From Cenarchaeum sp. (GTDB lineage Archaea > Thermoproteota > Nitrososphaeria > Nitrososphaerales > Nitrosopumilaceae), in the NCBI GenBank assembly GCA_965242695.1, contig CBDESU010000001.1, positions 1,344,001 to 1,408,000 on the forward strand: 64,000 nucleotides of DNA, written 5' to 3'. A program made the translations under genes and the position numbers. Position 1 is the stretch's first letter, and each line of letters starts with the position of its first letter. This document shows, piece after piece, positions 10-32,234 of the stretch. The notes beneath the pieces were generated by a model, which did not search any database, was not told the DNA's origin, and saw nothing but the letters and a program-made list of their open reading frames with translations.

Positions 10-1941
10 CTAGCGGGCCGCTTTTGCGCGCTTCGCGCGGCCGCGGCCGGGTTTGCGGCGCGTCCGACTCGACGGCGGCGGCTTGCCCGGCGGCTTGCCC
101 GGCGGCTTGCCCGGCGGCGCCGGCGCCGCCAGGTCGCCGACCGAGGGCCCGTCGAGTGTCGACCACGTCAGCCGCCTTGCGCCGCCCCTCGTGGCTCGGC
201 CTTTACGGCTGCCGCCCCCCTTGTTCCCGCTCTTGCCCTTGCTCTTGCTCTTGCCCTTGCCCTTGCCGCCGCCGCTGTCGGGCGGCTTCACCCGCCTGAC
301 TGTCGAGTTGCCGGCCAGATGCCTCGCCACGCTTCCGCAAAAGTCCAACCCCCTTGCGTTGCAGGTCCGCTCTACGCCGTGGATCACGGCGTGGTCCTCG
401 GCCCCCTCCAGGCTGCGGTTGCCTCCCGTGACCTTGCGTATGGAGACGCTGGGCCTAAAGGGCCGCTCGCCGTCGTTGTTGTGCCAGTCTACGCCGTCCA
501 CCTCAAGGAACGTGCAGATCTTGTTGCGCTCCCTCCTGAGGCGCTTTGCGAACCTCTTGCAGTCGGGATCCGTCCACTCCGTGTCGATCAGCTTGTCGAG
601 GCGCGCCTCCAGGTCCTTCTTGCACTCGAGCCGCTTGCGCTTGGACTTGAACTTGTCGGCGCGCTTGGCGTCCTCTATGATTTTGATCAGCTCCGGGGCC
701 ATCTTCTCGGTGAACTCGGCTCCGGGGCCCTTGTACCTGAGCGTCCGGTCGATCTCGCGCGAGTAGTGCTGGAGGCACACCTGCTCGGCCGTTCCGATGC
801 CGTTGGTAGCGCCGTACGAGTCCTTGCACACGGTGCCCTCGAACCCCTCGAGGTACCTGCGCGGGACCTCGGAGCCGCGGCTCGCCTCGATCGCAAGCAC
901 GACGGTCCACTTCGTCACAAAGTCCCACAGCCACACCATCTGCCCGTTGATCCACCACCGCGTCTCGTCGACGTTGACGACGCCGGACGCGCGCACCTGC
1001 CGCACAAACTCCTCGCGCAGTGGCCCCAGGTGCTTTGCCACGCGGTGGAAGGCGCGCGTCAGGTCGTCCTCGTCTATCCTGATGCCCAGGAGGGCGGCGA
1101 GGAGGTACCTGGCCTTTCCATAGGTCAGGCCGCTCACCCGGAAGGCGGCCAGGGTCACGTCCGTGCGCAGGCTGAACCGGCTGTTCGGCAGGGCGATCGG
1201 CGACCATGCCGTGTGCATCTTCTTGTGGAGGGGGCACCACCTGCGAATCTTGAATGTCAGGATCTTGTTGCGCAGCACCTCCATGTCGACGACGGTCTGC
1301 TTGACCGATTCCACGGGATCCGACAGGGGCGTGGAGCCGTCCACGGGGCACACCTTCTGGTCTATCTCGTACGCCTCGTCGATCGGCTGGTCGGGATCCG
1401 CAAGAAACTCGCTCAGGGTCGGGAGCCCCTCCTCGCCCGGCTTTGCCCCGCCCATGTGGGGGTTCGACAGGGGGGTGAATACCTGCCCCTTTTCGTCCTG
1501 CCCCTTGCCGCCCCCCTTGCCCTTGCCGCCCTGCCCCTTTTCGTCCTGCCCCTTGCCCTTGCCGCCCTGCCCCTTTTCGTCCTGCCCCTTGCCCTTGCCG
1601 CCCTTCTTTTTCCCCGATGCGGATCCGTCCCTTTTTGAGCGCCCCCTCCCCCTTGCATGCATTCCCAGCATCTCCGCCGCTAGGGCGGAGTTGGTCCTGC
1701 GCGCCTCATTCAGATCCCCTTCTAGGCCGGCCGCACGGTCCATAAGCTTTGTCACCGTTTCCACCAGATCTTTCTTGTCGCCCTCCGCCTTTTTTACGCG
1801 TTTGTCGAGCCTGGCTACGGTCCCCTCCAAACGCTTGTTCCTGCTCTGGATCTCCCTGTACCCGGCCAGCAGCTCGGCTTTCGTCCACTGCTCGGGCGGC
1901 CCCTGCGGCTCCTTCCACCGCCGGGCCCCGTCTCTCGCCAA
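10..1941 (-). CDS. IS66-family DDE transposase (TnpC-like, single-ORF element)
   Basis: IS66 motifs VNVDETRW, CKDSYG, QVCLQHYSRE and HNNDGERPFR; N-terminal coiled coil and C/H Zn-ribbon. Start placed at TTG 1941, ~25 nt below a TTAATATA box (1967-1974). The ORF-track start at 2067 probably over-extends. Confidence 0.9.
   Translation of the reverse strand: MARDGARRWKEPQGPPEQWTKAELLAGYREIQSRNKRLEGTVARLDKRVKKAEGDKKDLVETVTKLMDRAAGLEGDLNEARRTNSALAAEMLGMHARGRGRSKRDGSASGKKKGGKGKGQDEKGQGGKGKGQDEKGQGGKGKGGGKGQDEKGQVFTPLSNPHMGGAKPGEEGLPTLSEFLADPDQPIDEAYEIDQKVCPVDGSTPLSDPVESVKQTVVDMEVLRNKILTFKIRRWCPLHKKMHTAWSPIALPNSRFSLRTDVTLAAFRVSGLTYGKARYLLAALLGIRIDEDDLTRAFHRVAKHLGPLREEFVRQVRASGVVNVDETRWWINGQMVWLWDFVTKWTVVLAIEASRGSEVPRRYLEGFEGTVCKDSYGATNGIGTAEQVCLQHYSREIDRTLRYKGPGAEFTEKMAPELIKIIEDAKRADKFKSKRKRLECKKDLEARLDKLIDTEWTDPDCKRFAKRLRRERNKICTFLEVDGVDWHNNDGERPFRPSVSIRKVTGGNRSLEGAEDHAVIHGVERTCNARGLDFCGSVARHLAGNSTVRRVKPPDSGGGKGKGKSKSKGKSGNKGGGSRKGRATRGGARRLTWSTLDGPSVGDLAAPAPPGKPPGKPPGKPPPSSRTRRKPGRGRAKRAKAAR
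1483..1603. repeat. Coding tandem repeat (GKGKGQDEKGQ-like, ~3 copies) inside the IS66 transposase
   Basis: Repeated ctgccccttttcgtcctgccccttgcc units. A 12-bp PPGK repeat (x3) also lies at ~75-118. Confidence 0.85.
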
Positions 1942-2141
1942 GATCCGCCGTCCGGGCCCACGGGGATATATTAACATGCCTAAATGCGATCGCGCCTTCG
2001 GATGCGGCGCTATACGCGCTGGCACTGCGCCGAGGCGCCAAGTCGTCCCAAGACACCGCCGTGCCACGCGCCCCCTGCCTGCGCCGGCCCCCTGCCTTGT
2101 TGCGATCGGGCAAAAACCACTTCAAAAACCGGGATAGTTAC

Positions 2142-3077
2142 GCCGTGTCGCTTCTTGACGTGCTCATAGTACTTCTTCAGGTGGTCGTCGTAGCGGACTG
2201 CCACTGATGCCACCTGAATCATTATCCAGTTGAGCTTGCGGTTAACGTCGAGCTTTTTCATGCCGCCATGGCGTAGAGAGTCTCCCGACTGGTGCACGCT
2301 TGGGCACATGCCTACCGTCGAGATAATCTTCTTGGGATCCGAGAATCGATCTATGCCGTCCAGCTCTGCTGAAATCAGCAGCGCAGAGTACGCGTCGACG
2401 CCAGTCATGCTGACGATCCGGCGCACCGTCGGGGCAAACTTTGAGTTTGCCGCCTCGCGGAGAACATCCCTCTCTGCAAGGCCGATCTCGCGGTTGAAGA
2501 ACTCTAGCTGCTTGACGAGGCGCTGGATGTTCGTGTTGTCGACGTGGTTGCCTAGCGTTGTGCCGCGGAGCTGGGTAATGGCTTTGTTCGAGTAGATCTT
2601 GGTCGCTTTTAGGCGTACATCGTACTTTACGAGCAGGGCGCGAAGCCTGTTGCAGACCTTCGTCCTGTCCTGTACGAGTGCGATGATGGCGCGCATCATG
2701 TCCCTCAGCGCGCGCGTCTCCTGGTCGCCCAGGTGGCACGCCGGAAAGGCGTCGCGCCTTAGCAGATCCGCGATCTTTTCGGCATCGTTCTTGTCGTTCT
2801 TGTTGGAGCTCATCCATATGATCCGCATCTTGTACGGACTGCCAAGCTTGAACTCCACATTCTCCTTCGCGCACATGTCGCACAACTTTGCCCACATGTA
2901 CCCCGTGGCCTCGCAGCCGACGACGAACTTGCCGTGCTCCCTGCGCGCTGCCTTGAGGAACCTGCGTGTGCCCTCGGCCGTGTTGCCAAACATGGCGCGG
3001 TCGAGAACCTTGCCCTTGCGGTCCATGATGCATGCATGGTTGGTCTCTTTAGCGATGTCTATTCCAATATATTTCAC
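2142..3077 (-). pseudogene. IS110-family (DEDD) transposase, C-terminus interrupted by IS66
   Basis: Motifs YIGIDIAK, GCEATG, KNDKNDAEKIA and GMCPSVHQSG. GTG start at 3077 with GGTGA upstream. After ...EHVKKRHG the frame reads into the IS66 end. Confidence 0.9.
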
Positions 3078-3285
3078 ATTATCACCCCCTTTATCATACG
3101 TGTGGTCGGTCGTAAGCTGCACTCACCTATCAGGGCTCTACGGCCCAGTAACACAGCAGTTCGGACTGCCCCATTCAAGCATGAGGGCTCTGTTGGCCCA
3201 TGCCGTTTGAGGGGTCGCTCGACCACAGGCCGGCGCGCCCCAGGGGGTTTACATGGGTTCAAGCATGGGGCAGGAGCTGCTAAAG
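3078..3285 (-). ncRNA. Putative IS110 bridge/seek-type non-coding RNA
   Basis: About 200 nt of non-coding sequence between a TTTATA box (3303-3308, minus) and the transposase start. Inverted repeat CTGCCCCAT...ATGGGGCAG and direct repeat CATGCTTGAA. IS110 elements are known to encode guide RNAs in their non-coding ends. Confidence 0.5.
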
Positions 3286-3515: not shown

Positions 3516-3550
3516 CGAGCGCGCCGAGGCGCCGGCACTGCCCGCGTAGC
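3516..3550 (+). repeat. 35-bp direct repeat, copy 1 (second copy 7193-7227; encodes ERAEAPALPA*)
   Basis: cgagcgcgccgaggcgccggcactgcccgcgtagc is identical at both positions. Confidence 0.9.
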
Positions 3551-4572
3551 CGGCCGCGCTCCGAACTAGGACCGGGGCCTCGCGGCCGGCGGATCTCCCC
3601 GCGCGCCGGAAAGCGAAGACGGGCTGGTGCGATAATTGCGGCCGTCTTGCCGCCCCCCTCCCCCCCCTCCGCGGCCGCCCACGCAGGGCACTTTTGGGAT
3701 CCTGTCCCGCGTCGGGCCGCCCGCAAGAGACATATCCGGCATGGCGTGCCGCGCGGCATTGCACGCGGCACATGGAACAGGGGCGGCGCGCCGGGCGGTT
3801 GCCCTGTGCGGCCCGGCCCGAATCCGAAGGGCCCGCGGGTGCGCCGTGCCCGCCGTCCGACACGGCACCCGCCACCATGCGGCGCCGGCAGGGCGCGCGC
3901 GGAGGGGGCAGGGCGGCGCCCTGCCCGCAGGGGCGGCGCCCGGCCCGCCCCACGGAGGCAGGTTCTGTTGACGTTCCTAGCAATGGGCCGCGCAAAGGAA
4001 TGCATCGTGGCGCTCTCGGACCGCATGGAGAGCGTCAGTCATTCCCATCCCAACGAAGTGACAAAGTACGATCTGAGCGACGCGGGTGAATACTACATAG
4101 CCCTTTCGGGCGACGGGAAGACGGCAGGCGGCCTGCTAAGCAGGCTGAGGCTCCGCCAGCCCTCGGGAGCCGGCGTCCTCGGGGAGATCGACAGGATATC
4201 TGCCGAACTGTTCGCAATGGAGCTGAGGGGGCAGGTGGCCGGCCACCTGATCGTGGCAGGCGGCGGCGAGTTCAGGGCGTACACCATTGCCGTCGTATCC
4301 GGCATCGCAGTGTACGTCCAGAACAACGATCCCATCCACATGGAAGGCGACACAAGGGCGGCCGCCGTTTGCAGGAACCTTGCGCTGGACATGCCCCTGG
4401 CGGACATGCCCTGCGAGACCGCCGTCAAGTGCCTGCATTCCATGGCGGGCCGCATTGCAGAGACGGTCGACAGCGTGGGGGACGGCGGCAAGCATGGCGA
4501 GGGCCCCCGTAGAGTGAGAACGATCGGAATGGGAGGGGTTAAGAGCCCCGGGGGCGCCGGGGAGGCGAAAAA

Positions 4573-4890
4573 ATGACGCACAAGCGGTGGACCGCCAAGG
4601 AGCGGGTGGACATAGTGGTCGAGTACCTCTCGACGAACATCGGCGTGGCCGGGATATGCCGCAAGTACGGCCTCTCGCCAACCACGTTCGACAACTGGCG
4701 CAAGAGGTTCATGGACGCGGGCAAGAGGGAGCTTGCCGGCATAGGAGGCAACGGCAGGAGCGATCCTGCAAAGGCGCTGGCCAAGGAGAACGAGTCGCTC
4801 AAGATCGTCGTCGGCGAGCTGACCTTGGTCAATGCCGAGTTAAAAAAAAGCTGGGAGTTGAGGAGAGGGCGAGCGCGGTCAAGAGGATAG
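4573..4890 (+). CDS. IS3-family transposase OrfA (HTH)
   Basis: KRWTAKERVDIVVE...VAGICRKYGLSPTTFDNWRKRF, an HTH_Tnp_1-like motif followed by a leucine zipper. A8G slippery site at 4842-4850. Confidence 0.9.
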   Translation: MTHKRWTAKERVDIVVEYLSTNIGVAGICRKYGLSPTTFDNWRKRFMDAGKRELAGIGGNGRSDPAKALAKENESLKIVVGELTLVNAELKKSWELRRGRARSRG

Positions 4891-5726
4891 CGGAGGGCAA
4901 GGTGAGCCTGACCCGGGCGCTAAAGTACTGCGGCGTCTCGCGCCAGGCGTACTACTACAAGAAGAGGCCCGTCAAGAGGGACATCGACATGGCCGTCGCA
5001 AAGGCCGTGACCCGCATATCCTCGGAGAGGCCCACCTACGGGACGAGGATGATCGCGCACACCGCATCGTACGAGATGCGGCGCCGGGTCAACCGCAAGA
5101 AGGTGGTGCGAATATGCGACATCTTGGAGATAAAAGGGCCAAAAATGACGAAAAAACAGGCGATTCGGGCTGCAAAGGCGCGGAAACCGCAGTTCTTCCC
5201 CACGGCGCCGTACCAGCTGCTCGAGACGGACATTACGTATATAGACTGCGGCGTCGACGGGTGGTGCTACTGCTTCAACGTGTTCGACGTGTTCACGCGC
5301 CGCTGGCTTGGATACGTGTTCTCGACGTCTGCCCAGGCGTCGTCGGCCGTCCAGTCGGTGACCGAGGTCGTGGCGGAGCTGCGGCCCGAGCGGGTCAAGG
5401 GGATCCGCGTGCGCTGCGACAACGGCTCGCAGTACAGGAGCGGCGAGTTCAGGGCGGCGATGAAGGTCCTCGGCCTCGTCGTCGAGTACATCTGGGTCAG
5501 CACCCCCCAGCAGAACGGCCACATCGAGTCGTTCCACAACACGCTCAAGCGCGACTACGTCCGCCCGCACGACTTTGAGAGCTTCCAGGAGGCCGAGAAG
5601 TACCTGGCCTACGCCTTCAAGGACTACAACGCCAACAGGGTCCACTCGTCGATCGGGTGGCTGCCGCCCGACGAGTTCTTCAGGCTCTGGGAAAGAGACA
5701 ATAAGGAGGGGGAGGGGCCGGCATGA
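4842..5726 (+). CDS. IS3-family transposase OrfB (DDE integrase core), expressed by -1 frameshift
   Basis: Motifs LETDITYI, RCDNGSQY and TPQQNGHIESFHNTLKRD; -1 frame relative to OrfA. Confidence 0.9.
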   Translation, partial: KKKLGVEERASAVKRIAEGKVSLTRALKYCGVSRQAYYYKKRPVKRDIDMAVAKAVTRISSERPTYGTRMIAHTASYEMRRRVNRKKVVRICDILEIKGPKMTKKQAIRAAKARKPQFFPTAPYQLLETDITYIDCGVDGWCYCFNVFDVFTRRWLGYVFSTSAQASSAVQSVTEVVAELRPERVKGIRVRCDNGSQYRSGEFRAAMKVLGLVVEYIWVSTPQQNGHIESFHNTLKRDYVRPHDFESFQEAEKYLAYAFKDYNANRVHSSIGWLPPDEFFRLWERDNKEGEGPA

Positions 5727-5945
5727 CGATGGCGGCGATCGGGCGCCAGACCCCCCCAAAAATGACCTCAAAATCGTTCTCAATCTGGGGGGGCCACATC
5801 AAGCACGGGTTCGACGTGGTCGTGTTTTCAAAGTCTGGAGCGGTGACGGAGCTTCGGCGGCGCACTGACAGGATGGGATCGATCCGCGCCCGCTTCAAGG
5901 CGTCCGACACGGGGTCGCTGCTCGGCCCGGACGGGGTGGCATAGC

Positions 5946-7226
5946 ATGGACGACATGGCCTACGAGGCCGCAAGGGCCGCGATATCAGAAAAGGACGACG
6001 CGTACTTTGCGGCGCACGGGCTGGTCGATCTCCTCTCCAACGCCGGATTGGAGGCAGGCCCCGGCGCGATCCTCGCACTGGCGCGGCGCCTGGCAGCGGA
6101 CGACACGTATGTGTTCCTCTCCCCCATCTCGGCCGGCCTGCGCGAGGCCGTCTCGGACGACGACGGATTTGCGCGCGTCGTCAGCGGCGTGGCCGCCACG
6201 GTGCGCCGCGACGTGTTCGTGCGGCCGCTGGTGGACGCGCTGGTTGGAATGGGAAAGGACAGCCCGTCGACGGCCGCCGCCGCGGCGGCGCGCCTGGCCG
6301 GGCTGGGCGACTCCGACTTTGCGGCGCTCATGATCGGCGGGGCCTACGAAGGGGCCGGCACCGAGTGCGATGCCATGATCGAACGGCTATTCTCGCCGGG
6401 AAGGCCCAGGGATGCGGCCGCCGCGGTGCGGGCCCTCAGGATAGCTAGGTCCGAGCACGGCTCGCCGGATGCGGGGCGCATCAGGGCCGCCGTCGGGCGC
6501 GCACTGGCCCACGACGATGCAGAGGTGCAGGAGGAGGCCATGGAGGCCCTCGTGGACGTCTACCGCGGGGGCGATGCCGCCGCTGAGGGCATGATCGAGT
6601 CGCTGGTCGCCGAGCGCCACCATTCTCGCCCCGCCCTGGCCGCCCACATCTTTGCAGACTCGCCGTTTGACGACGACAAGAGCCTGCGCTACCTGAGGGC
6701 CTGCATGGGGCACAAGAGCGGCCGATCCGTGATGCACAGCGCATACTGCGCCCTGGCAAAGATGGCCGGGAGGAGGCCCGGCGACGTCGCCAGGATGCTC
6801 GTGTGGATGTTCGGCAGCGGCTGGCACGACGGCGCGTGGGCGAGTCTGGTACTGGACGAGCTTGGGAAGAGGGGCGCTCCGGCCGCGGTCGCCGCCATCC
6901 TGGAGGTGCTGCAGCGGCCGCACGACGGCAGGCTCGACAAGTACCTAGAGCCGGCCGTGGAGCGCATCGCGCGGAACGCCGGCCGCGGCGAGGTGGCAGA
7001 GATGGTGCTGCGCGCGATCGACGATAGGCCGCCCGAACGGGACCCCTGCCTGCGCATCCTGTCCCTGCTCGCGCGGGAGGACTGGCGGAACGGGGGCAGT
7101 TCCGAGTTTCTCGAGGGGATAATGTCGCGCCTGTGCGCGCGCCCTGCGGTTCCGGAGGGAGAAGGTGCGGAAGCGGGCGGCGAGCGCATCCCCGAGCGCG
7201 CCGAGGCGCCGGCACTGCCCGCGTAG
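5946..7226 (+). CDS. Hypothetical alpha-helical (HEAT/ARM-like) protein, 426 aa
   Basis: Starts 1 nt after the Ntn gene stop. Ala/Leu-rich amphipathic helices such as LAHDDAEVQEEAMEALVDV. Confidence 0.7.
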   Translation: MDDMAYEAARAAISEKDDAYFAAHGLVDLLSNAGLEAGPGAILALARRLAADDTYVFLSPISAGLREAVSDDDGFARVVSGVAATVRRDVFVRPLVDALVGMGKDSPSTAAAAAARLAGLGDSDFAALMIGGAYEGAGTECDAMIERLFSPGRPRDAAAAVRALRIARSEHGSPDAGRIRAAVGRALAHDDAEVQEEAMEALVDVYRGGDAAAEGMIESLVAERHHSRPALAAHIFADSPFDDDKSLRYLRACMGHKSGRSVMHSAYCALAKMAGRRPGDVARMLVWMFGSGWHDGAWASLVLDELGKRGAPAAVAAILEVLQRPHDGRLDKYLEPAVERIARNAGRGEVAEMVLRAIDDRPPERDPCLRILSLLAREDWRNGGSSEFLEGIMSRLCARPAVPEGEGAEAGGERIPERAEAPALPA

Positions 7227-7262
7227 CGCGCCCCGCCGAAGCACTGGCACCCGCGCGCAGAG

Positions 7263-7847
7263 TCACGGCAGGGCGGGCGGAGCAGGCAGGGGATCCCCGC
7301 CCTGTACGGCCCACGCCTCCTCCGACGCCTCGCCGGCATCCGCCACGTGGCCGGCGGGGCGCGGCTCGTGCTTTACGCCGGCGAACCACACCTCCGATGC
7401 CTCGCCGGCCTTTGCCATGCGGCCGACAGGCGAGTCGAGGAGCGCCGCATACGCATCGCGGTCGGCGCGCATGTACGCCTCTTCTGCGGCCCGCAGCCCG
7501 GCGGCCTCGCCGCCGGATACGCCGCCGTCGGCCGCGGCGGCCCGCAGTTCAGCCGCATACTCCTCGGCGGCCAGTGCAGCTTGCCGGCTGGCGGCCATCA
7601 AGGCCCCGTACTCGCCGGGATCGCCGGGCCAGCCCGGCGGCATGCCGGAGTCGAATGCCAGAATGTCGGCACGGGCTGCCGCGGCGGCCTCTTCGTATGC
7701 CGCGGCCTCGTCCAGCGCCAGGCGCGCCTCGTCCGTCATGTGCCCCGTCGGATCCAGCGCCCCGCCCCACACGGCAAGGCCCGCTAGCGCGCCCATTGTG
7801 GCACCGAGGGCGCCGACGGCGGCCAGTCCAGCGTAGGGTTTTCTCAC
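7263..7847 (-). CDS. Hypothetical secreted/membrane-anchored protein
   Basis: GTG start ~25 nt below TTAATA (7871-7876); N-terminal hydrophobic segment; acidic Ala-rich helices. Confidence 0.55.
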   Translation of the reverse strand: MRKPYAGLAAVGALGATMGALAGLAVWGGALDPTGHMTDEARLALDEAAAYEEAAAAARADILAFDSGMPPGWPGDPGEYGALMAASRQAALAAEEYAAELRAAAADGGVSGGEAAGLRAAEEAYMRADRDAYAALLDSPVGRMAKAGEASEVWFAGVKHEPRPAGHVADAGEASEEAWAVQGGDPLPAPPALP

Positions 7848-8293: not shown

Positions 8294-8444
8294 CCGGGGG
8301 AGGGCGGCGCACAGGCGGCCGGGGCGCCCAGCGGCGCGCCGCATCCGCGGATGTGCATCATATGGGGCGCCCAGGACGCGCCGGCGGGGATCGCGCTCGA
8401 TCGGCGCCGGATCGCTCATATTGAGCACGGATTCCCTGCGCGGC

Positions 8445-9179
8445 ATGCAGGCGGCGGGGCCGGGGCGGCGGGAGGAAGGCAGAGTCAGGGCGAGCGGCGG
8501 CAGGGCGGCCGGGGCGGCGCCAGCCGACGGCGTTGCAGAGTTCAGGGAGATGTTCGTCTCGCTAGTCGATCCGGCAGGCCTGCTCGACATGGAGGCGTGC
8601 CGCAGGACGGCCGCCAGTATGGAAGAGGCGGCGTCAAGGTCGGGGTATGAGGCCGGCGCCAGGATGGCGTCCATCCTGTCCGACATGTTTGCCGCCACGG
8701 ACGACATTGCGGGCAGGCCCGTCGAGGACGGGTCGCTGGGCCACACATGGGTGGCTCACGGATTCATCATGGGCGTGCTGTACGACACTGCAGAGGCGTA
8801 CAGGGACGGCAGGGATGTGGAGCCGATCGGCGAGCTGGAGAATGCAAGGGCCGCGGTTGAGATCCAGAGGTCCAAGGCCAACAGGTACCGCGACCAGCTG
8901 AGGGCCGCAGGCGGGCCGCCCGGCGCGAGCCTCCCCGGTATCGAAAGGATGCACGTGGGCATGCTATGCAGGGGCGTGGTGAGAGAGGGGCAGGAAAAGG
9001 CGCGAGCGCGACAGAGGGAGTGGGGGCACGATCCCGTGTTTCCGCCAAAGGCAAAGGCTCCCGACGAGTTGTGCAAAGAGTGCAGGGACGGCATATCTGC
9101 CACCGCGATACTGGAGATGATGAGGGGCAACATCCCCGACGGGTACGAGCTGGTGCGGGTTGGCAATGGCGGCGGGTAG
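8445..9179 (+). CDS. Uncharacterised paralog family member A (HPt-like helical N-domain, C-terminal CxxC, ...IPDGYELVRV)
   Basis: Highly similar to 9264-9992 and 29388-30125; TCATA box ~25 nt upstream. Confidence 0.8.
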   Translation: MQAAGPGRREEGRVRASGGRAAGAAPADGVAEFREMFVSLVDPAGLLDMEACRRTAASMEEAASRSGYEAGARMASILSDMFAATDDIAGRPVEDGSLGHTWVAHGFIMGVLYDTAEAYRDGRDVEPIGELENARAAVEIQRSKANRYRDQLRAAGGPPGASLPGIERMHVGMLCRGVVREGQEKARARQREWGHDPVFPPKAKAPDELCKECRDGISATAILEMMRGNIPDGYELVRVGNGGG

Positions 9180-9263
9180 CAAGGCGGATGCGACGCGCCG
9201 GCCCGAACCGCATCAGATCGGCATAAAGAAGGGGTCATAAGGGGCACAGATGCCCCCCGCGCC

Positions 9264-9992
9264 GTGCAGGTGGCAAGGCAGGAACAGGAGATGGGCAGAG
9301 TCGCGCAAGGGAGCGGTCGCATGGTGGCAGTGGCAACGACCGCTGCCGGCGGCGTCGCCGAGTTCAAAGAGATGTTCGTCTCGCTCGTAGATCCGGCCGG
9401 CCTGCTTGACATGGAGGCGTGTGGCATGACGGCCGGCAGGATGGAAGAGGCGGCGTCAAGGACGGGGTACGAGGCAGGCGCCAAGATGGCATCCATCCTG
9501 TCCGACATGTTTGCCACCACTGACGACATTGCGGGCAGGCCCGTAGAGGACGGGTCGCTGGGCCACACAGGGATAGCGCACGGGTTCTTGATGGGCGTGC
9601 TGCGCAGCACGGCGGAGGCGTACAGGGACGGCGGAAACGTAGAGCCTTTGGACGAGCTGGAGAATGCAAGGGCCATGATCGAGCTCCAAAGGTCCAGGGC
9701 CAACAGGTACCGCGAGCAGCTGAGGGCCGCCGGAGGGCCGCCCGGCGCGAGCCTGCCGTGGATCGAAAAGATGTATGTGGGCAAGCTATGCAGGGACGTG
9801 GAGAGGGAGGAGCAGGAAAAGATGCGCGCGCGGCGAAAAGAGCGCGGGGACGATCCCATATTCCCGCCAAAGGCAAAGACCCCGCGCGAGATTTGCGGGG
9901 AGTGCGCGGACGGGATATCCGGAACGGCGATACTGGAGATGATGAGGGGCGACATCCCCGACGGGTACGAGCTGGTGCGGGTTGAAAGATGA
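9264..9992 (+). CDS. Uncharacterised paralog family member B, candidate antitoxin upstream of PIN
   Basis: Tandem paralog of 8445-9179, directly upstream of the PIN gene. Confidence 0.8.
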   Translation: MQVARQEQEMGRVAQGSGRMVAVATTAAGGVAEFKEMFVSLVDPAGLLDMEACGMTAGRMEEAASRTGYEAGAKMASILSDMFATTDDIAGRPVEDGSLGHTGIAHGFLMGVLRSTAEAYRDGGNVEPLDELENARAMIELQRSRANRYREQLRAAGGPPGASLPWIEKMYVGKLCRDVEREEQEKMRARRKERGDDPIFPPKAKTPREICGECADGISGTAILEMMRGDIPDGYELVRVER

Positions 9993-10057
9993 CAGGCAGT
10001 AAAGCCAAGGCTTCCGGCGACCTGACCGGAGTTGGCTGCCTTTTCGTCGAGCTGAAA

Positions 10058-10657
10058 ATGAAGATGGGCGGCAGCGTTAATATCGTGTACGTGTACCTCG
10101 ACAGCAGCATGCTCGTGGCGCTGTTCGACCCCGACGACATGCACCATGTCGACGCGGTCAGAGTGTTCCATACGATGGTGAAGATGGGATACAAAATGAT
10201 CACCTCGCTGCTCGCAGTCATGGAGGCCGTCGCCGCTGTCCGCAAAAAGGCCGCAAGGTCGCACAGGTGCAAGTTGGAAAGCGCCGAGGAGCGGGCAGGC
10301 GTGGAAGCGCACATGCACAGCATGGCCGGCGGCATGGCCAAGTTTGTAGACGAGATGGTGGAGGAAAAAACCCTAAGGATCATGGATTTGAAGGGCAGGT
10401 CGCCCGACCTCGAGCTCCTGTACGGCAAGGTGCTCGAGCATGCCGGCAGCGTCGTGCCGGTTGCCAAGGGCGACAGGTTCAGGTACCGCGGGGTCGGATC
10501 GTGCGACTGGCTGCACTTTTGGCTCGCCCTGGTCTTGGGCGCGGCAATAATCTGCACGGCCGACAAGGCGTTCGCCGACATCCCCGGCAGGGACAAGGAG
10601 TTCGGCGGGATCGCGGTGCAGCTGACGTCCGAACCGCTCTCCACCCCGCTGGCCTGA
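10058..10657 (+). CDS. PIN-domain (VapC-like) ribonuclease
   Basis: VYLDSSMLVALFDPDDMHH...TSLLAVMEA...CDWLHFWLA...ICTADKAF, the PIN acidic-residue pattern. The start could be 9989, overlapping the upstream stop. Confidence 0.85.
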   Translation: MKMGGSVNIVYVYLDSSMLVALFDPDDMHHVDAVRVFHTMVKMGYKMITSLLAVMEAVAAVRKKAARSHRCKLESAEERAGVEAHMHSMAGGMAKFVDEMVEEKTLRIMDLKGRSPDLELLYGKVLEHAGSVVPVAKGDRFRYRGVGSCDWLHFWLALVLGAAIICTADKAFADIPGRDKEFGGIAVQLTSEPLSTPLA

Positions 10658-10874
10658 GCGCGGCCGTTCCGGCCGGCTCCGCGCTGTCGGGACAGAATTG
10701 CCCCGCGCAGAGACGGGGCGCGCGCCGGCCGCGCCCACGGCAGGGGCCCTGCCGGAGGGCCGGCATGCCTCGCGAGAGCCAAGAGGCGACCAAGTCCGGC
10801 CCGCGCGCCCGCCAGCCCGCGGAGCAGGGCCCCAAACCCCAAGGGTTTTAGGCGCGCCGGCGCGCGGCGGCCGC

Positions 10875-12143
10875 ATGGCCCGCTTCGAGCAGGACGTCGA
10901 CCTGAGGGGGCACATCGTCGACTCTGGGATACTCGGCAGGGTGTTTGCACTGATAATGGACGCAGGCTGCGAGTTCGAGGTCGTCGACATGCGCATAGGC
11001 CGCCGCAAGTCCGACCAGAGCGCCGCGCGCCTGCGCATACAGGCCGGCTCGCAGGAAGAGCTAGACCGCATAGTCGGGCTGGCGTACAGGGAGGGGGCGA
11101 CGGCCGACGAGCCGGCCGAGGCGAGGCTGGTGCCGGCCCCGCGCGATGCCGTCATGCCCGCCGGGTTCTACTGCACGACGAACAACCGCACGCAGGTGAG
11201 GTTCGGCGGCCGCTGGATCGACGTCGACCGCATGATGATGGACAAGTGCATTGCGGTGCGCGGCGCGCGCGCGACGTGCCTGCCCGTGCGCGACGTCAAA
11301 AAGGGCGACCTTGTCGTCGTCGGCGACGGGGGCGTGCGCGTCGCGCCGCCCGAGAGGCCCCGCAGCGCCGGCAACATATTCGAGTTCATGGGCAGCGGCA
11401 GCTCTAGCGAGAGGCCGACGAGGCGCATGGCCCGGCGCGTCGCCGAGGACATGGACCGCACGAGGAGGGCCGGCGGCCGCATCGTAATGGTCGGCGGGCC
11501 GGCGATCGTGCACACCGGGGCCGCCGGCGCCGTCGCATCCCTCGTGCGCGGCGGCTTTGTGCACGGCCTGCTCGCCGGCAACGCCCTTGCCGTCCACGAC
11601 ATCGAGAATGCGACGCGCGGCACGTCGCTCGGCATGAGCGTCGAGGAGGGCATGCCCGTCCCCGACGGGCACCGCAACCACATGGACGCCATAAACGACG
11701 TGTTCAGGGCCGGCTCGATAAGGAGGATGGTCTCGTCCGGGCGCCTCGAGAGCGGCATCATGTACGAGTGCATCTCCAACAACGTGCCGTTCGTCCTGGC
11801 TGGGTCCATACGCGACGACGGGCCGCTGCCCGACGTCGTAACGGACGTCGTCGAGGCGCAGCGCAGGTACAAGAGGGTGCTCAGGGGCGCCGACATGGTG
11901 ATCATGGTCTCTACGATGCTCCACTCGATCGCCACGGGCAACATGATACCGGCCGACGTCAAGGTGATCGTCGTCGACATCAGCCAGCCGACGGTGACAA
12001 AGCTGATGGACAGGGGCACGTGGCAGGCGCTCGGCATAGTGACTGACGTCGGCGCGTTCCTGCCCATGGTCGCCGGCGAGGCGGCGAGGCTGGCAAGAAA
12101 GGGGGGCGGCCGGAAGAAGGAAAAGGGCGGCGGCCGGAAGTGA
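10875..12143 (+). CDS. TIGR00300-family protein (LOR/SDH-related; ornithine cyclodeaminase-like)
   Basis: GHIVDSG, FYCTTNNRT, FEFMGSGSSSERP, GNALAVHDIE, LAGSIRDDGPLPD, MLHSIATGN. Confidence 0.92.
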   Translation: MARFEQDVDLRGHIVDSGILGRVFALIMDAGCEFEVVDMRIGRRKSDQSAARLRIQAGSQEELDRIVGLAYREGATADEPAEARLVPAPRDAVMPAGFYCTTNNRTQVRFGGRWIDVDRMMMDKCIAVRGARATCLPVRDVKKGDLVVVGDGGVRVAPPERPRSAGNIFEFMGSGSSSERPTRRMARRVAEDMDRTRRAGGRIVMVGGPAIVHTGAAGAVASLVRGGFVHGLLAGNALAVHDIENATRGTSLGMSVEEGMPVPDGHRNHMDAINDVFRAGSIRRMVSSGRLESGIMYECISNNVPFVLAGSIRDDGPLPDVVTDVVEAQRRYKRVLRGADMVIMVSTMLHSIATGNMIPADVKVIVVDISQPTVTKLMDRGTWQALGIVTDVGAFLPMVAGEAARLARKGGGRKKEKGGGRK

Positions 12144-13195
12144 GGGCCGCGTTCGTCGAGGAGCCTGGCAGGGTCGGGGTGAAAGAGGCAGGCGGCGCCG
12201 GCGAAGAGGGCGGCATGGCAGTCGACATGGCGGCCTGCGGCATATGCGGCTCGGACGTCGAAAAGGTGTTCGGATCGTACGGGCAGCCGTCGATGCGCCT
12301 CGGCCATGAGCCGGCCGGCATTGTGGCCGACCCGGGGGCGGCCGGCGCCGAGGCGGGCTTTTCCTCGGGCGATCGCGTGTTCACGCACCACCACGTGCCG
12401 TGCTACGAGTGCCACCTGTGCAGGCGCGGCGCCGAGACGATGTGCCCAAGGTACTACGAGACAAACCTCTCGCCGTGCGGCCTGGCCGAGCGGTATACGG
12501 TCCCCGAGTGGAGCGTCAGGCGCGGCGGCGTCCTTGCGCTGCCCGGCTCCATGTCCTTCGAGGAGGCGGCCCTCATCGAGCCGCTCGCATGCTGCGTGCG
12601 GGCGTGGACGAGGGCCGGCGTGTCGGCGGCCGGAGAGGGCGACACTGTAGCCGTGTGGGGGATGGGCGCGACCGGAATGATGCACGCGATGCTCGCCCGG
12701 CACAGGGGCCTTTCCGGGTCCGTTTGCATCGACACCAACGAGGCCAGGCTCGGGTTTGCCGGGCGCGAGCTCGGCAGGTTCTGCGCGGCCGCGTGCGGGC
12801 CGGCAGATGCGGCCGACGCCGTCCGCTCTGCTACCGGTGGGAGGGGCGCTGACGTGTGCATTGTGGCGGCAGGCAGCATGGCCGCCCTGGAGGGGGCGAT
12901 CGGGGCGGCGAGGAGGGGCGGGACGGTCGTAATGTTCGGCGTGCCGTCAAGGGGAGACGGGCTGCGGCTGGACATGGCCGGCATGTACTCGAGAGAGGTG
13001 GCGCTGAGGTCGACGTACGCGGCCTCGGACAGGGACACGGCGGACGCGCTCGGCCTCATATCGTCGGGGGCGGTTCCGGCTGGGCGCCTTGTGACGCACC
13101 GGTTCGGGCTCGACGATGCGCAAAGGGCGTTCGAGCTGGCAAGGTCGGGCGGGGACGGGGCCGTAAAGATTGTCGTGACGGGGCCCCGTGCGTGA
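12140..13195 (+). CDS. Zn-dependent alcohol/polyol dehydrogenase (MDR family)
   Basis: CGSD, GHEPAG, CYECHLCRRG...C, EPLAC and GMGATG motifs; overlaps the upstream stop. Confidence 0.92.
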   Translation: MRAAFVEEPGRVGVKEAGGAGEEGGMAVDMAACGICGSDVEKVFGSYGQPSMRLGHEPAGIVADPGAAGAEAGFSSGDRVFTHHHVPCYECHLCRRGAETMCPRYYETNLSPCGLAERYTVPEWSVRRGGVLALPGSMSFEEAALIEPLACCVRAWTRAGVSAAGEGDTVAVWGMGATGMMHAMLARHRGLSGSVCIDTNEARLGFAGRELGRFCAAACGPADAADAVRSATGGRGADVCIVAAGSMAALEGAIGAARRGGTVVMFGVPSRGDGLRLDMAGMYSREVALRSTYAASDRDTADALGLISSGAVPAGRLVTHRFGLDDAQRAFELARSGGDGAVKIVVTGPRA

Positions 13196-13222
13196 GAATG
13201 GAGGGCGTAAGGGCGGGCGCGG

Positions 13223-16200
13223 CTACCGCGGCGCCGGCGCGCCGGCGCACTCGGCCGTGTACTCTACGTGCTGGACTAGCCTGGTGGCGTTGACCTGGTC
13301 GTGCCCCGTCAGGTTGATCCTTAGCCACAGCGGCTCGCCCAGGCCGCCGCCAAGCCCCTGCGCCACGGCGGCGGGCAGCTGCGAGTACGCCCCGTCCTCC
13401 CCCGCCTCGCTAGCCACCGTAAGCGAGGCCGGCAGGGACGGGGCGCTCGGTCCGGGCCGCGGCGACGAGGGGTCGATGTACCACGGGGTCGCATCGAGCG
13501 CGACGCGGGCAAACGGCTGCGAGCCAGAGTTGGCCACGTCCTGCCTGGCCGCCTTGGAATGGGCGCCCGGCATCGCATCCACGGCCAGGGTTCCCGCGCC
13601 GAGGCGCAGCGAGCACGTATGGTATACGGGCGGCGGCGTGCCGCGCTCGGAGGCGACCGTGCCGAACCGCGTCAGGTGGTACGTGTAGACGACCAGGTCG
13701 CCGCCTTCAGAGTCGATCCGGCACTCGCCCATGCCGCCGAGCTGGAGGTGCACCCTGCCCGTGTCGTCGGCCGCGCACGCCATGTCGATCGGCTCGATTG
13801 TGCCGTTTGCCCCGCCGTCGATGTAGAACGCGCGGCCGGCGGCCTGGCCCTCGAGTGATATGCGGATGGGCATGTCGAACGAGATGCGGGCGTCCTCGTC
13901 GCCGATCTCGACGACCCTCTGCAGCACGACCGCGCCCGAGCCGCCGTATGCGAGCGCATCCCGTATGCTAGAGTTTGACGGCAGGTCGGTATCGACGGAC
14001 GCGTTGACTACGTGCAGGACGAGCCGCCGGTCGGCCGGCACGGACGTCGCCTCCACTCCGGGCGGGAACGAGACGGATGCGAACGACGTAGTCACTACGG
14101 TGGCGCTGCCGGACGGGAACCGCACCGCTCCGCCGGCAGTCCCGGCGCCAGGCAGCCCCGACACGTCGATCGTAATGCGCGCCTCGTCTCCCCTGCCGGT
14201 AAAGTTTCCCTGGCCGTCGACCCGGTCGGATCCGACGACGAATACGGGCGAGGTCGCGTTGCCGTTGGCGCCGGGGTCCGTCGCGTTGCCGTTGGCGCCG
14301 GGGTCCGTCGCGTTGCCGCCCGGCGTCTCGCCTCCGCCGTTGCCGCCGTTGCCGCCGTTGCCGCCCGGCGTCTCGCCTCCGCCGTTGCCGCCGTTGCCGC
14401 CCGGCGTCTCGCCTCCGCCGTTGCCGCCCGGCGTCTCGCCTCCGCCGTTGCCGCCGTTGCCGCCCGGCGTCTCGCCTCCGCCGTTGCCGCCGTTGCCGCC
14501 CGGCGTCTCGCCTCCGCCGTTGCCGCCGTTGCCGCCCGGCGTCTCGCCTCCGCCGTTGCCGCCCGGCGTCTCGCCTCCGCCGTTGCCGCCCGGCGTCTCG
14601 CCTCCGCCGTTGCCGCCGTTGCCGCCCGGCGTCTCGCCTCCGCCGTTGCCGCCGTTGCCGCCCGGCGTCTCGCCTCCGCCGTTGCCGCCGTTGCCGCCCG
14701 GCGTCTCGCCTCCGCCGTTGCCGCCGTTGCCGCCCGGCGTCTCGCCTCCGCCGTTGCCGCCGTTGCCGCCCGGCGTCTCGCCTCCGCCGTTGCCGCCGTT
14801 GCCGCCCGGCGTCTCGCCTCCGCCGTTGCCGCCGTTGCCGCCCGGCGTCTCGCCTCCGCCGTTGCCGCCGTTGCCGCCCGGCGTCTCGCCTCCGCCGTTG
14901 CCGCCGTTGCCGCCCGGCGTCTCGCCTCCGCCGTTGCCGCCGTTGCCGGTGGCATCTATTGTGATGCCCGATGCGCGCAGTGCATAGGGCGAGTCGGCCG
15001 GCGGCAGCCCGAGTTCCGCGTTGTTGCCGGCCGCGTCTTGCGCCGTCCCTGCAACCAGGGACAGGGCATCCTCGCCTTGGCCGTAGGCCAGCGGATCCGC
15101 GCTGTCGCCGGCATCCACCGCATGGCTGAACACGAGCGTCCGGCCGCGGTCCGACTGCCGCTCGTACCGGGCGGTCGCATCCTCCCCGCCGCCAAGCGCC
15201 AGCCTCAGCGACAGGTCGGCCCCGCTGGACAGGACGACCCGCTCGTCGAAGGCGACTGCGATCCGGATCGTGTCGCCCTCGCGGTACGGGGCTTCCCGGG
15301 GATCCGCATCCGTGACGCTCGCCACGCGCGGCGCGGCCGTGTCGATCCTGATGCCGGCCGTGGCGCCGAGCAGCCCCTGTCCGTCCGGCCGGGGCAGTCC
15401 CAGGTCGGCGCGTCCGGCGGTTCCGTCCGAGTCCCTAATGTCTCCGCCGTTGAGGACCAGGGCGCTGCTGTTGGCATGGCCGAGGCGGTCGGCGGCGTCG
15501 CCGTCGCCTACCGTATAGCGGAACTCGATCTCGGCATCGCCGTCGCTGTCTTCGACGTACGCCGCGCTCCGGGGCGGGTCGGTCGAGAGCCAGAGAAGGG
15601 GCGTGCCCGTCACGTCCACGGCCTCGGTAAAGGCCACGGTGACGTTGATTTTCGAGCCGGCCGCGTACGCGCCGCCCTCATCCGGCGAAAAGACGGACTC
15701 GACGGCCGGCGGCGTGTCTATTGTTATGCCCCGCCCGTGCCCGAGCGATCCCCCCTCGCCGGGGGCGGGCAGCTCCAGGTCGGCCGACACAGAGCCGCCG
15801 CTGCCCCGCGCGCCGGCATCCTCGACGAGGCCGCGCGTCACCAGGGCGCCCGCCCCCGCGTATTCCAGGCCGCCGCCCGCGTTGTCGCCCGGCCGCACCG
15901 TGTAGTTGAACACGAGCCTCGACGTGCCGCTGCCGTCCAGGTATCCGGCGGCCCCTTCGCGGCCGCCAAGGTCGAGCAGCAGGGAGGGGGGCGGATCAGC
16001 GACGGACACCGGCGCGTCGAACCCCACGGTAATGTTGATCGACTGGCCCGCTCCGTACTCGCCGTCCCGCAGCGACGCCGAGGCGTTTTCCACGGATGCG
16101 GGCGAGAGCCGGATCAGCTGGATGTCGTCGCCGCTGGTGCCGTCGGACGAGGTCACCATGGCGTACGTGCGGTTTGCCATGGCGAACACGGCGGTGCCGT

Positions 16201-26433: not shown

Positions 26434-26450
26434 CTACGGGGCCCTCGCCA
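26421..26450 (-). mobile_element. Solo remnant of the IS3 left inverted repeat
   Basis: TGGCGAGGGCCCCGTAGAGTGAGGACGACG versus TGGCGAGGGCCCCCGTAGAGTGAGAACGAT at 4495. Confidence 0.65.
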
Positions 26451-31833: not shown

Positions 31834-32234
31834 CCTTGGCACCCGCAGGGTCTGCCTTTGCACGCCGCCTCGCCATCGCCCGACATGCGATTGCGACCCT
31901 TTTTGAACCATGCCGGCCCTAGCAAGTCACGAGACGGGGCTGTCCCATTCGCCCTCTGGTAACCGCCGCCCACCACGCGATCCTGCGGGGCATGCCTTGC
32001 CTGCGGGCAGATGCCCCGCACTGGGCCGATCGCGCCTTGCGCCCCGTCTCAGGCGTCAGCGTAGGCCAAGCCCACGCGGCATGCGGTACACATTCAGGTC
32101 TCTGGCACACGACGCGCGCGTCGGGGGCAGCTAGGGCGCGGTTGACGCTAGAGACCTGAATGTGCACGGCATGCGCCCTTTTGCGTCCGGCATGGTTAAT
32201 AGCGCCTAGCGCCGCGTCCCTGTGGCGATACTGC

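Follow-up and report, generated by a model that had tools for sequence, protein, structure and literature searches.

Proteasome homologues form a diverse group, and to our knowledge a partner or function has been identified for almost none of their orphan subfamilies. Fuchs, Alva and Lupas described in 2021 a set of 22 orphan proteasome-homologue subfamilies (PMC8665760); in the text and part of the supplement of that paper, WPH, PHI and ACC are marked for 'Other Archaea', Thaumarchaeota or Nitroso- names are absent, and no conserved HEAT partner is described for the orphan subfamilies. A C-terminal coiled-coil helix, H5, is predicted there in WPH, ACC and some PHI, and a long helical insertion follows H2 in PHI, while HslV pairs with HslU, and connectase lacks H1 and H2 and carries a two-helix insertion between S3 and S4 (PMC8665760). 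Two other systems also bear on the locus considered here. Part of the preprint on Olokun (bioRxiv 10.1101/2025.07.10.664194) describes an adaptin-like protein, OloA, bound 2:2 to the effector OloB, and part of a report on DSR2 (PMC11263360) mentions HEAT repeats and a phage tail tube protein that triggers the enzyme.

The window, that is, the whole stretch of 64,000 nucleotides that was analysed, holds a gene for a putative proteasome-type enzyme that is split by an IS3-family insertion sequence and followed by a partner gene (Table 1). The enzyme gene opens with TTG, with a GGAGG 10-14 nt upstream, its next codon encodes Thr, and the frame is open up to the IS junction at 4494. When the two parts are joined, they yield an in-frame sequence of 666 nt that encodes 221 aa and a terminal stop codon, uninterrupted by any other stop, and the rejoined product is identical to the intact database protein P0001 at 210 of 221 positions. 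This length is shared exactly by 16 of the 29 close homologues. Taken separately, the 5' part matched residues 1-177 of P0001 at 96.6% identity and the 3' part residues 175-219 at 86.7% (tblastn); a 73-aa fragment ORF (5723-5944) stands among the predicted proteins as P0104. A promoter and terminator scan of the locus, by a method built for bacterial signals, found no signal. A preliminary description of this DNA had proposed that IS3 excision restores an ORF of ~221 aa beginning Met-Thr, with Asp17, Lys32 and Ser46-Gly47 (Thr as residue 1), an E-G-D segment and a late D-S-V-G-D-G ... F-D-V-V-V segment, and all of these features were found in the sequence where it had placed them, the last of them straddling the IS3 break. 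With IS3 in codon 176, the enzyme gene is dead in this genome, and the partner gene is intact.

Table 1. Features of the enzyme-partner locus and its mobile elements, in window coordinates
Feature	Coordinates	Strand	Description
IS66-family transposase ORF	10..2067	-	DDE_Tnp_IS66, E 5.8e-30
IS110-family transposase gene	2010..3122	-	DEDD_Tnp_IS110, E 1.5e-30; Transposase_20, E 5.9e-16
Partner-tail copy	3516..3559	+	44 nt, 93% match to 7193-7236 (blastn)
Enzyme gene, 5' part	3968..4494	+	Codons 1-175 and two bases of codon 176
Left direct repeat CAAGCA	4489..4494	.	Target-site duplication, 4-6 bp
IS3-family insertion sequence	4495..5800	+	About 1306 bp; sole full copy in the window (blastn)
Right direct repeat CAAGCA	5800..5805	.	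Second copy flanking IS3
Enzyme gene, 3' part	5806..5944	+	Remainder of codon 176 to TAG (5942-5944)
Partner gene	5946..7226	+	426 aa, predicted all-helical HEAT/adaptin-like solenoid, OloA-like

The inserted element was assigned to the IS3 family by two overlapping ORFs, HTH first and DDE/rve second, an A-rich site, inverted repeats and a short target duplication. Its orfA (4573-4890) matched HTH_Tnp_1 (E 4.8e-11), the orfB frame, ending at 5726, matched rve (E 3e-14) and rve_3 (E 3e-17), and a run of eight A followed by G near 4853 fits programmed -1 frameshifting. The terminal inverted repeats measure 23 nt (4502-4524 and 5773-5795) and are 87% complementary. The target duplication had been given as AGCA, which does flank the element; however, the full repeat is CAAGCA, of which AGCA is only the core, and a duplication of 4, 5 or 6 bp is therefore possible. 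The insertion itself amounts to ordinary gene decay. The IS110 gene lies just upstream of the pair and forms part of a mobile-element cluster around it. The partner-tail copy corresponds to the 3'-terminal 34 nt of the partner gene and 10 nt past its stop, and it appears to be what is left of a paralogue of the partner type that lay upstream.

The AlphaFold (AF2) model of the enzyme followed the proteasome-beta order of elements, beta4-H1H2-beta4-H3H4-beta2, with strands at residues 3-8, 12-18, 30-36 and 42-49 and helices at 50-63 (H1) and 69-83 (H2) in the first half, and four strands, helices at 129-139 and 149-168 and two further strands in the second. One of the five models was confident (pLDDT 73.1, against 51.9-58.6 for the others), and a conserved C-terminal tail of 27 residues (195-221) had a pLDDT below 50. 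A ubiquitin-like meaning of the Gly-Gly at the end of this tail was considered and dropped because the proteins of the three related loci described below end differently. The Ntn-hydrolase fold anticipated by the preliminary description was recovered in the structural comparison, in which Foldseek returned at least 500 PDB matches at E<=1e-3, those listed being 20S subunits and Anbu throughout (best E 2.9e-8, listed range about 3e-8 to 3e-7, TM 0.42-0.60, probability 1.00). Against a viral library, the matches were phage proteasome/HslV-like proteins (best E 5.4e-6).

At the sequence level, a profile of 40 diverse members retrieved 54 PDB sequences at E<=10, 48 of which were proteasome-family chains, and its ten best matches comprised proteasome alpha and beta subunits, HslV and connectase (E 7e-4 to 9e-3). 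In this comparison, Thr2, Asp18 and Gly48 of the profile aligned with Thr1, Asp17 and the Gly of HslV, whereas the profile Lys lay two positions off the HslV Lys, in a loop, and not in the same column. The AlphaFold topology, the Foldseek matches and this profile together place the predicted enzyme in the proteasome family. It had been called very divergent from PsmB, in agreement with which no Pfam match was obtained at the curated cut-off. No Pfam model, PF00227 included, matched the window's enzyme parts or P0001 even at E<=1 or 10; sub-cut-off Pfam Proteasome matches were seen in five of the 40 members (best E 0.019) and for P0118 (E 0.0059), and the PsmB equivalog model TIGR03634 matched one of the 40 (E 0.074). 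A closer 27-member profile had no match in the PDB, and the NCBIfam search with the family gave chance-level matches only. PHROGs returned one weak HslV match (P0117, E 0.0094); the enzyme search of phage records and the PADLOC models returned no match to the enzyme. In the ESM Atlas, the clusters nearest to P0001 were unnamed bacterial hypotheticals, one of which has PF00227 in 12% of its members and is taken as a lead only.

The family comprises 29 close homologues and 80 cluster representatives at E<=1e-3, and for this reason the observation is more than chance. No name for it was found in Pfam, NCBIfam, PADLOC or the source annotation, and no description was found in the literature searched. 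No propeptide precedes the candidate nucleophile: the residue right after the initiator is Thr in 81 of 83 N-termini, drawn from 109 sequences after setting aside 24 without a recognisable N-terminus and two false regex matches, and Ala takes its place in the other two (P0019 and P0025, both close homologues). Counting Met as residue 1, D18, R19, K33, G48, G171 and D179 are conserved to at least 90% across the 40 diverse members, in which G127 and G177 are invariant, and T2, D18, K32, G127 and G177 are invariant in 27 other members. A scan of one genome per species over 185,579 species with a single narrow peptide pattern (alignment A5) yielded three loci, from Nitrosopumilus (L001), a Thaumarchaeota MAG (L002) and Nitrosotalea (L003); the close alignment A1 gave 41 pattern matches, none of which was confirmed. 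In a quick tree, all three loci fell within one half of the family, and among the members of the other half are fusions with Ig-like and cupredoxin domains that are devoid of the HEAT part.

The ATG of the partner gene lies 1 nt after the enzyme stop, just as the preliminary description had it, and the alpha-solenoid that it suggested for the 426-aa product is borne out by a confident model (pLDDT 88.7, 24 helices). HEAT_2 was found in 19 of 28 partner-family members, and the partner resembled importin, PP2A-A and Integrator among its matches. A partner homologue is the next gene downstream of the enzyme in all three related loci, which represent three Nitrososphaerota lineages (profile A2, E 4.8e-63 and 1.4e-47; BLASTP 2e-45 and 2e-36). 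In L001, L002 and L003, the enzyme stop and the partner start overlap by 8, 8 and 4 nt, and these overlaps at three of four junctions, with the 1-nt gap in the window at the fourth, argue for probable co-translation in fixed proportion. Moreover, seven of the 22 distinct longest-contig sizes of the partner family recur in the enzyme family, equal size being the sole basis of this match. The long L003 partner has an extra C-terminal half (residues 395-749), for which the ESM Atlas gave nothing named (scores <=0.87) and phmmer against the PDB gave no match.

The sole PADLOC match of the partner is OloA, with E-values of 4.7e-14 in L003, 2.3e-13 in L001 and a weak 2.1e-3 in the window; it covers model positions of about 56-387 of 596 and recurs in nine of 28 close partners (best 2.1e-6). 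Such HEAT-repeat similarity can be generic. No OloB match was obtained among the 14 proteins scanned with PADLOC, and none lies near the pair. The Nitrosotalea pair has an integrase, an HNH protein, AbiV and PDC-S01 (E 5.8e-34) as neighbours, and transposases surround both L001 and the window pair. The suggestion that the pair might be defence-related is supported by the OloA match and by the neighbours of L003, and such a role is plausible; the Ig-like and cupredoxin fusions without HEAT fit it poorly. Taken alone, we would put a defence role of the module at rather less than even odds.

The reading that we favour, with a probability of about 0.55, is that of a two-gene module in which a Thr1 peptidase, dead in this genome, is paired with an OloA-related HEAT solenoid in a conflict or anti-virus role, and the best reading of its spread is that it is specific to Nitrososphaerota (ammonia-oxidising archaea). 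In this module, the first gene would encode a 221-aa, propeptide-free T1 enzyme of the Ntn-hydrolase fold (proteasome/HslV/Anbu), and loss of the initiator Met would leave Thr1 free to act as nucleophile, with Asp17, Lys32 and Gly47 acting as catalytic helpers and oxyanion hole in what is presumed to be peptidase chemistry. Since the enzyme has no propeptide, its control would come from something other than autoprocessing. The second gene would be translationally coupled to the first through the stop/start overlap or 1-nt gap, and its solenoid may bind the enzyme, gating it or delivering a target to it. The likeliest role of such a pair would be a conflict or anti-virus module in which a threonine protease, not the nuclease of Olokun, is connected to an OloA-type sensor. 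The earlier interpretation, an accessory proteasome-like protease or ligase coupled to an adaptor or sensor, is supported, with the fold, Thr1 in homologues and the co-conservation of the two genes all in its favour. A bolder version remains tentative and on balance unlikely, namely that the pair is the first known case, in ammonia-oxidising archaea, of an anti-virus system with a proteasome-family threonine protease as effector; an Olokun-type adaptin/HEAT sensor would here have exchanged its nuclease for a propeptide-free Thr1 peptidase, which it would restrain until the binding of a viral protein sets the peptidase free. If the protease were the effector, the cupredoxin-fused relatives could be the same enzyme re-used with a different targeting part.

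The pair might instead serve housekeeping, as a self-compartmentalising protease of HslV/Anbu-like rings with the HEAT protein as cap, activator or assembly factor, much as Blm10/PA200, itself built of HEAT repeats, caps the 20S core; virus defence would then play no part. Helices H1-H4, which make ring contacts in proteasome-family proteins (PMC8665760), are all present in the enzyme model, ring-forming beta subunits and Anbu head the structural matches, and conservation of the family extends over Nitrosopumilaceae, Nitrosotaleaceae and lineages associated with sponges. However, the spread looks patchy by the single narrow pattern used, two enzyme and five partner paralogues lie on one 2.2-Mb contig, mobile elements and defence genes surround the loci, and two of the four copies known as DNA are inactivated, by IS3 in the window and by an in-frame TGA in L002. 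Furthermore, the L003 partner is far closer to OloA than to generic HEAT_2 (1.8e-4). Altogether, these observations make a housekeeping role improbable.

Less likely again is that the two genes share an operon without any interaction of their products, or that the enzyme is not a peptidase at all, being a small-molecule amidohydrolase or an inactive, alpha-subunit-like scaffold. The binding of the two proteins is presumed, non-protein amides are substrates of Ntn hydrolases outside the proteasome family (PMC8665760), and the profile also touches proteasome alpha subunits. Nevertheless, the fixed-ratio co-translation suggested by the four junctions speaks against independent products, the full catalytic-type residue set is conserved, unlike in alpha subunits, and the structural neighbours are beta subunits and Anbu, not acylases. 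A connectase-like, sequence-specific transpeptidase or ligase with the HEAT protein as scaffold or substrate is the least probable of these alternatives, since, even though parts of PMC7980362 and PMC8665760 describe connectase as a propeptide-free archaeal proteasome homologue and the 40-member profile reached connectase chains at E 0.0087, that match was limited to profile positions 98-175, no DUF2121 Pfam match was found, and the enzyme model has both H1 and H2 and no S3/S4 insertion.

The defences of ammonia-oxidising archaea, organisms of global importance, have been little explored. In every locus examined, the enzyme family has a strictly adjacent and apparently translationally coupled partner, and such a partner offers a direct handle on a possible complex and its substrate. 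The OloA link of the partner suggests a defence sensor coupled to a proteasome-type protease which, if true, would represent a new effector class in prokaryotic immunity; if the pair were housekeeping instead, it would offer a small model system for a proteasome relative under the control of a HEAT protein.

Compared with HslV, 20S beta subunits and Anbu, the enzyme shares the predicted fold, the order of secondary-structure elements, the N-terminal Thr and the equivalents of Asp17, Lys32/33 and Gly47. It differs from them in a similarity that falls under the Pfam and NCBIfam cut-offs, in E-G-D at the place of the G-S-G segment, in its conserved C-terminal tail, and in a HEAT solenoid as neighbour, with no AAA+ unfoldase, alpha subunit or Anbu-type operon. 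The poor equivalog match, the lack of a propeptide and a HEAT protein in place of an alpha neighbour set it apart from PsmB, and a HEAT solenoid, not the AAA+ HslU, lies directly downstream in the window and in the three related loci. Thr directly after the initiator is shared with other propeptide-free proteasome homologues (PMC8665760), connectase (DUF2121) among the archaeal ones. Like the 22 orphan subfamilies, as far as the text and part of the supplement of PMC8665760 describe them, the enzyme is divergent, narrowly spread and propeptide-free and keeps its active-site residues; any separation from them is judged from the published descriptions (PMC8665760). Its model shows no helix past residue 192 and no insertion after H2, the features described for WPH, ACC and PHI, but residues 195-221 are of low confidence in that model (pLDDT below 50).

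Defence proteins with a HEAT part as virus sensor, DSR2 among them, follow the same logic as that proposed here, although the Sir2 NADase of DSR2 is part of a single chain and the present pair has a separate protease; the likeness considered is one of logic. Olokun differs in gene order and domain of life, and the pair described here is known from genes alone; both are nonetheless two-gene modules that join an adaptin/HEAT-like protein to an enzyme, which is a PD-(D/E)XK nuclease in the case of OloB and a predicted proteasome-type hydrolase in the archaeal pair.

In the Cenarchaeum window, the proteasome-like enzyme gene was found to be split by an IS3-family element, which comprises a small ORF with an HTH_Tnp_1 domain (E 4.8e-11) and a second, overlapping frame matching rve and rve_3 (E 3e-14 and 3e-17), with a run of A near 4853. 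It is the only full copy of this element in the window, which is GC-rich (58-75% per 2-kb block). The AGCA target duplication reported in the preliminary description is present as the core of the flanking repeat, but the repeat is longer, corresponding to a hexamer. Excision of the element restores the ORF of about 221 aa that had been anticipated, since the two joined parts make up 666 nt (221 codons and a stop) without any internal stop. A 73-aa fragment ORF derived from this gene is present in the protein collection as P0104. Elsewhere in the window, a 29-nt segment matches the IS3 left end at 93% and may be a remnant of another IS3 copy.

Positions of the features discussed, in the window and in the three external loci
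Sequence	Feature	Position	Remarks
Window	Copy of 7193-7236	3516-3559	44 nt, 93%
Window	Enzyme gene, 5' part	3968-4494	TTG, then Thr codon; frame open up to 4494
Window	Direct repeat CAAGCA	4489-4494 and 5800-5805	either side of IS3
Window	IS3-family element	4495 to about 5800	splits enzyme gene
Window	IS3 terminal inverted repeats	4502-4524 and 5773-5795	23 nt
Window	Enzyme gene, 3' part	5806-5944	
Window	Partner gene	5946-7226	starts one base past TAG of enzyme gene; 426 aa
Window	Hypothetical gene, three copies	8421-9179, 9264-9992, 29469-29768	87-88% similar
Window	PIN-domain gene	9989-10657	
Window	Giant ORF	13223-21613 (-)	2796 aa; 36-nt repeat units, 14.2-15.0 kb
Window	IS3 left-end fragment	26423-26450	opposite strand
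Window	Methylase-Mrr ORF	30484-31911 (-)	
Window	Giant ORF	35956-57438 (-)	7160 aa; 300-nt repeat units, 39.4-44.8 kb
L001 (Nitrosopumilus MAG chromosome)	Enzyme start	8001	TTG
L001	Partner gene	8677-10905	about 745 aa
L002 (Thaumarchaeota MAG contig)	Enzyme gene	1685-2368	ATG start
L003 (Candidatus Nitrosotalea devanaterra)	Enzyme start	8001	TTG
L003	Partner gene	8690-10939	about 745 aa
L003	Stretches flanking the pair	4464-7580 and 11570-15828	

For the 175-aa piece from the N-terminus, a word-indexed search retrieved 29 proteins (E ≤ 0.01), and exactly 221 aa is the length of 16 among them. The best match, the intact relative P0001, showed 98% identity over that piece, and the complete window read-through was identical to it at 210 of 221 positions. 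By sequence comparison, the split enzyme gene is a real gene that was intact until recently. Three of the 11 differences from P0001 fall at conserved sites, namely His176 (Tyr or Phe in the family), Ser213 (Pro) and Val220 (Gly). Codon 176 is the one split by the element (4493-4494 + 5806), and Tyr or Phe occupies this position in 27 of 27 aligned close homologues. These departures could reflect relaxed constraint or exchange between paralogues.

Regarding the nature of the enzyme, neither the window pieces, P0001 nor any of 27 close members reached a relevant Pfam family, and the 27-member close profile matched no PDB sequence. An AlphaFold2 model built from the 27-sequence alignment reached a pLDDT of 73.1 and a pTM of 0.72 (the other four models only 51.9-58.6), with residues 195-221 unmodelled. 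The modelled order of four strands, two helices, four strands, two helices and two strands matches the one known from proteasome beta subunits, in agreement with the Ntn fold previously proposed. Foldseek returned at least 500 PDB matches to this model at E ≤ 1e-3 (best E 2.9e-8), and all of the matches listed were 20S subunits or Anbu, with TM scores of 0.42-0.60; in a viral structure library, phage proteasome/HslV-like proteins also matched it (best E 5.4e-6). When 1.84 billion cluster representatives were searched exhaustively with the 27-member profile in HMMER, 80 of them passed E ≤ 1e-3. With a further profile, made from 40 diverse members, 54 PDB sequences were matched at E ≤ 10, and 48 of these belong to the proteasome family; the top ten, with E from 7e-4 to 9e-3, comprise HslV, connectase and both alpha and beta subunits of the proteasome. 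These matches provide evidence for proteasome kinship at the sequence level, independent of the fold model. In the HslV and beta-subunit alignments obtained with this profile, the family Thr2 is in register with the mature Thr1; in that with HslV, Asp18-Arg19 corresponds to Asp17-Arg18 and the Gly of A-L-A-G-D to the oxyanion Gly, and the family Lys is off by two positions, in a loop. Pfam Proteasome matches were weak and sub-threshold, and were found for five of the 40 members and for the family protein P0118.

The N-termini of 109 family sequences were also surveyed, leaving out 24 without a recognisable N-terminus (fragments or late gene calls) and two regex false hits. Thr1 proved to be kept, as Thr follows the initiator in 81 of 83 N-termini and Ala in the other two (P0019 and P0025). 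Ten of the 81 have a longer gene call, in which Leu or Met precedes the Thr inside the ORF, a pattern that fits initiation there from TTG, CTG or ATG. Among the four copies read in DNA, TTG is the start in three and ATG in one, and a database family protein beginning with Val points to a GTG start. The enzyme family is without a propeptide, as the preliminary description held. Conservation across the 40 diverse members is complete at G127 and G177 and reaches at least 90% at D18, R19, K33, G48, G171 and D179. In L001 and L003, the enzyme start is preceded at about 25-30 nt by an AT-rich, TATA-like stretch, which may indicate leaderless transcripts.

No locus was confirmed by a genome scan with the close enzyme alignment; L001, L002 and L003 came from a further scan, based on ten members that are more distant. 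The two genes turned out to be co-conserved, the partner homologue being the next gene after the enzyme gene in all three loci. The partner-family profile matched it at E 4.8e-63 (L001) and 1.4e-47 (L003), and BLASTP to the window partner gave 2e-45 and 2e-36, respectively, over about 370 residues; the L002 partner ORF, cut short by the contig end, shares the conserved stretches and gave a HEAT match. The coupled genes overlap by 8 nt in L001 and L002 and by 4 nt in L003, and are separated by 1 nt in the window. Moreover, seven of the 22 distinct longest-contig sizes of the partner family are common to the enzyme family, which suggests that both occur on the same contigs, and a 2,212,536-bp contig holds two enzyme and five partner paralogues, with co-location read from equal contig size. 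In the window, a copy of the partner's last 34 nt and the 10 nt past its stop lies upstream of the enzyme gene, adjoining IS110 and IS66 transposase genes; this short copy suggests a lost upstream partner paralogue and hence a former tandem array.

A quick tree was computed for 78 rows, namely the window read-through, L001, L003 and 75 of 108 database proteins, after removal of those shorter than 185 residues or lacking a recognisable N-terminus. All three HEAT-linked rows fell in one half (49 rows, SH-aLRT 87), so the pairing is seen only in that half of the family. Ten representatives of 685-954 aa (P0088, P0091, P0093, P0098, P0099, P0101, P0102, P0112, P0115 and P0120) begin directly with the enzyme domain; behind it come regions with weak Ig-like matches and, in seven of the ten at E ≤ 0.01, a C-terminal cupredoxin/plastocyanin domain. 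None has a HEAT part. Those kept in the tree form a single 10-row clade (SH-aLRT 93) in the half without HEAT-linked rows.

The partner has 28 homologues, of which 19 match HEAT_2 at E ≤ 0.01, and the PDB match of the family profile was to designed armadillo-repeat proteins. Its AlphaFold2 model is confident (pLDDT 88.7, 24 helices), and Foldseek related it to importins, PP2A-A, Integrator and similar solenoids. As none of these matches is better than E 1.8e-3, the fold is considered generic. In the PADLOC library of defence-system models, the only family matched by the partner was OloA of the anti-phage system Olokun, with scores of 2.1e-3 for the window protein, 2.3e-13 for the L001 homologue and 4.7e-14 for that of L003; nine of the 28 close members also matched it (best 2.1e-6). 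These matches are far stronger than the generic HEAT matches of the same proteins (e.g., HEAT_2 1.8e-4). Olokun is described as a 2:2 assembly of OloA, which is adaptin-like, and OloB, a nuclease of the PD-(D/E)XK type (bioRxiv 10.1101/2025.07.10.664194), and other papers attribute its discovery to Millman et al. 2022. The window protein corresponds to the N-terminal half only of the L001 and L003 partners, whose extra C-terminal half matched no named family or solved structure.

Besides the pair, the window contains insertion elements (IS66, IS110 and IS3), giant repeat proteins, hypothetical genes present in several copies, a gene with a PIN domain and a fusion of a methylase with Mrr. One hypothetical-gene copy directly precedes the PIN-domain gene, and the two may form a toxin-antitoxin-like pair. 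The single ORF joining an N6/N4 DNA methylase (E 1.2e-52) to an Mrr-type restriction endonuclease (E 8.3e-12) is another defence-type gene, and the giant ORFs, with NHL, EPTP, LVIVD and Ig-like matches, probably encode surface or adhesin-type proteins. In L001, the pair is preceded by an rve transposase and followed by two of the DDE_Tnp_4 type. The L003 pair has genes for a phage-type integrase and an HNH protein on its upstream side and, downstream, an AbiV(-HEPN) gene (Pfam 4.8e-14, PADLOC 2.7e-6) and an AAA_14/DUF4143 ATPase matching PDC-S01 (5.8e-34); this setting looks like an integrated element or defence island. In L002, the reading frame of the enzyme gene is interrupted by a TGA where the ten-member alignment has an invariant Gly (column G93), which means either a sequencing error or another inactivated copy. 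With the IS3 in the window and this TGA, two of the four copies read as DNA are broken.

The fold, the conserved set of residues, the pairing and coupling of the two genes and the insertion are thus established by the data, whereas the mode of action is proposed. In the genome studied here, the partner is intact and the enzyme switched off. In an intact pair, removal of Met would expose Thr1, and Asp17, Lys32 and Gly47 would complete a proteasome-type active site. Since there is no propeptide, control would come from assembly or from the partner. By analogy with OloA and OloB, the solenoid may bind the enzyme and either gate it or deliver its targets. A conflict or defence role of the pair is the leading guess, at a probability of about 0.35, because of the mobile, paralogue-rich and decay-prone setting and the OloA link. 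Rival readings are a ring-forming protease with a housekeeping task, capped by the HEAT protein, a ligase resembling connectase, or two gene products that do not interact.

Among known systems, HslV, 20S beta and Anbu are the closest kinds by fold, and the orphan proteasome-homologue subfamilies of Fuchs, Alva and Lupas 2021 (PMC8665760) the closest by type. There, WPH, PHI and ACC are marked for 'Other Archaea', with a helical insertion and a coiled coil at the C-terminus as stated hallmarks. Neither is seen in the enzyme model, in which the tail is poorly modelled. Thaumarchaeota do not appear in the accessible text and supplement text of the same paper, our literature search found no paper describing the enzyme family, and none of the 38 proteins looked up carries a name in any source. 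The enzyme is accordingly classed as a member of the proteasome family whose conserved OloA-like partner is new.
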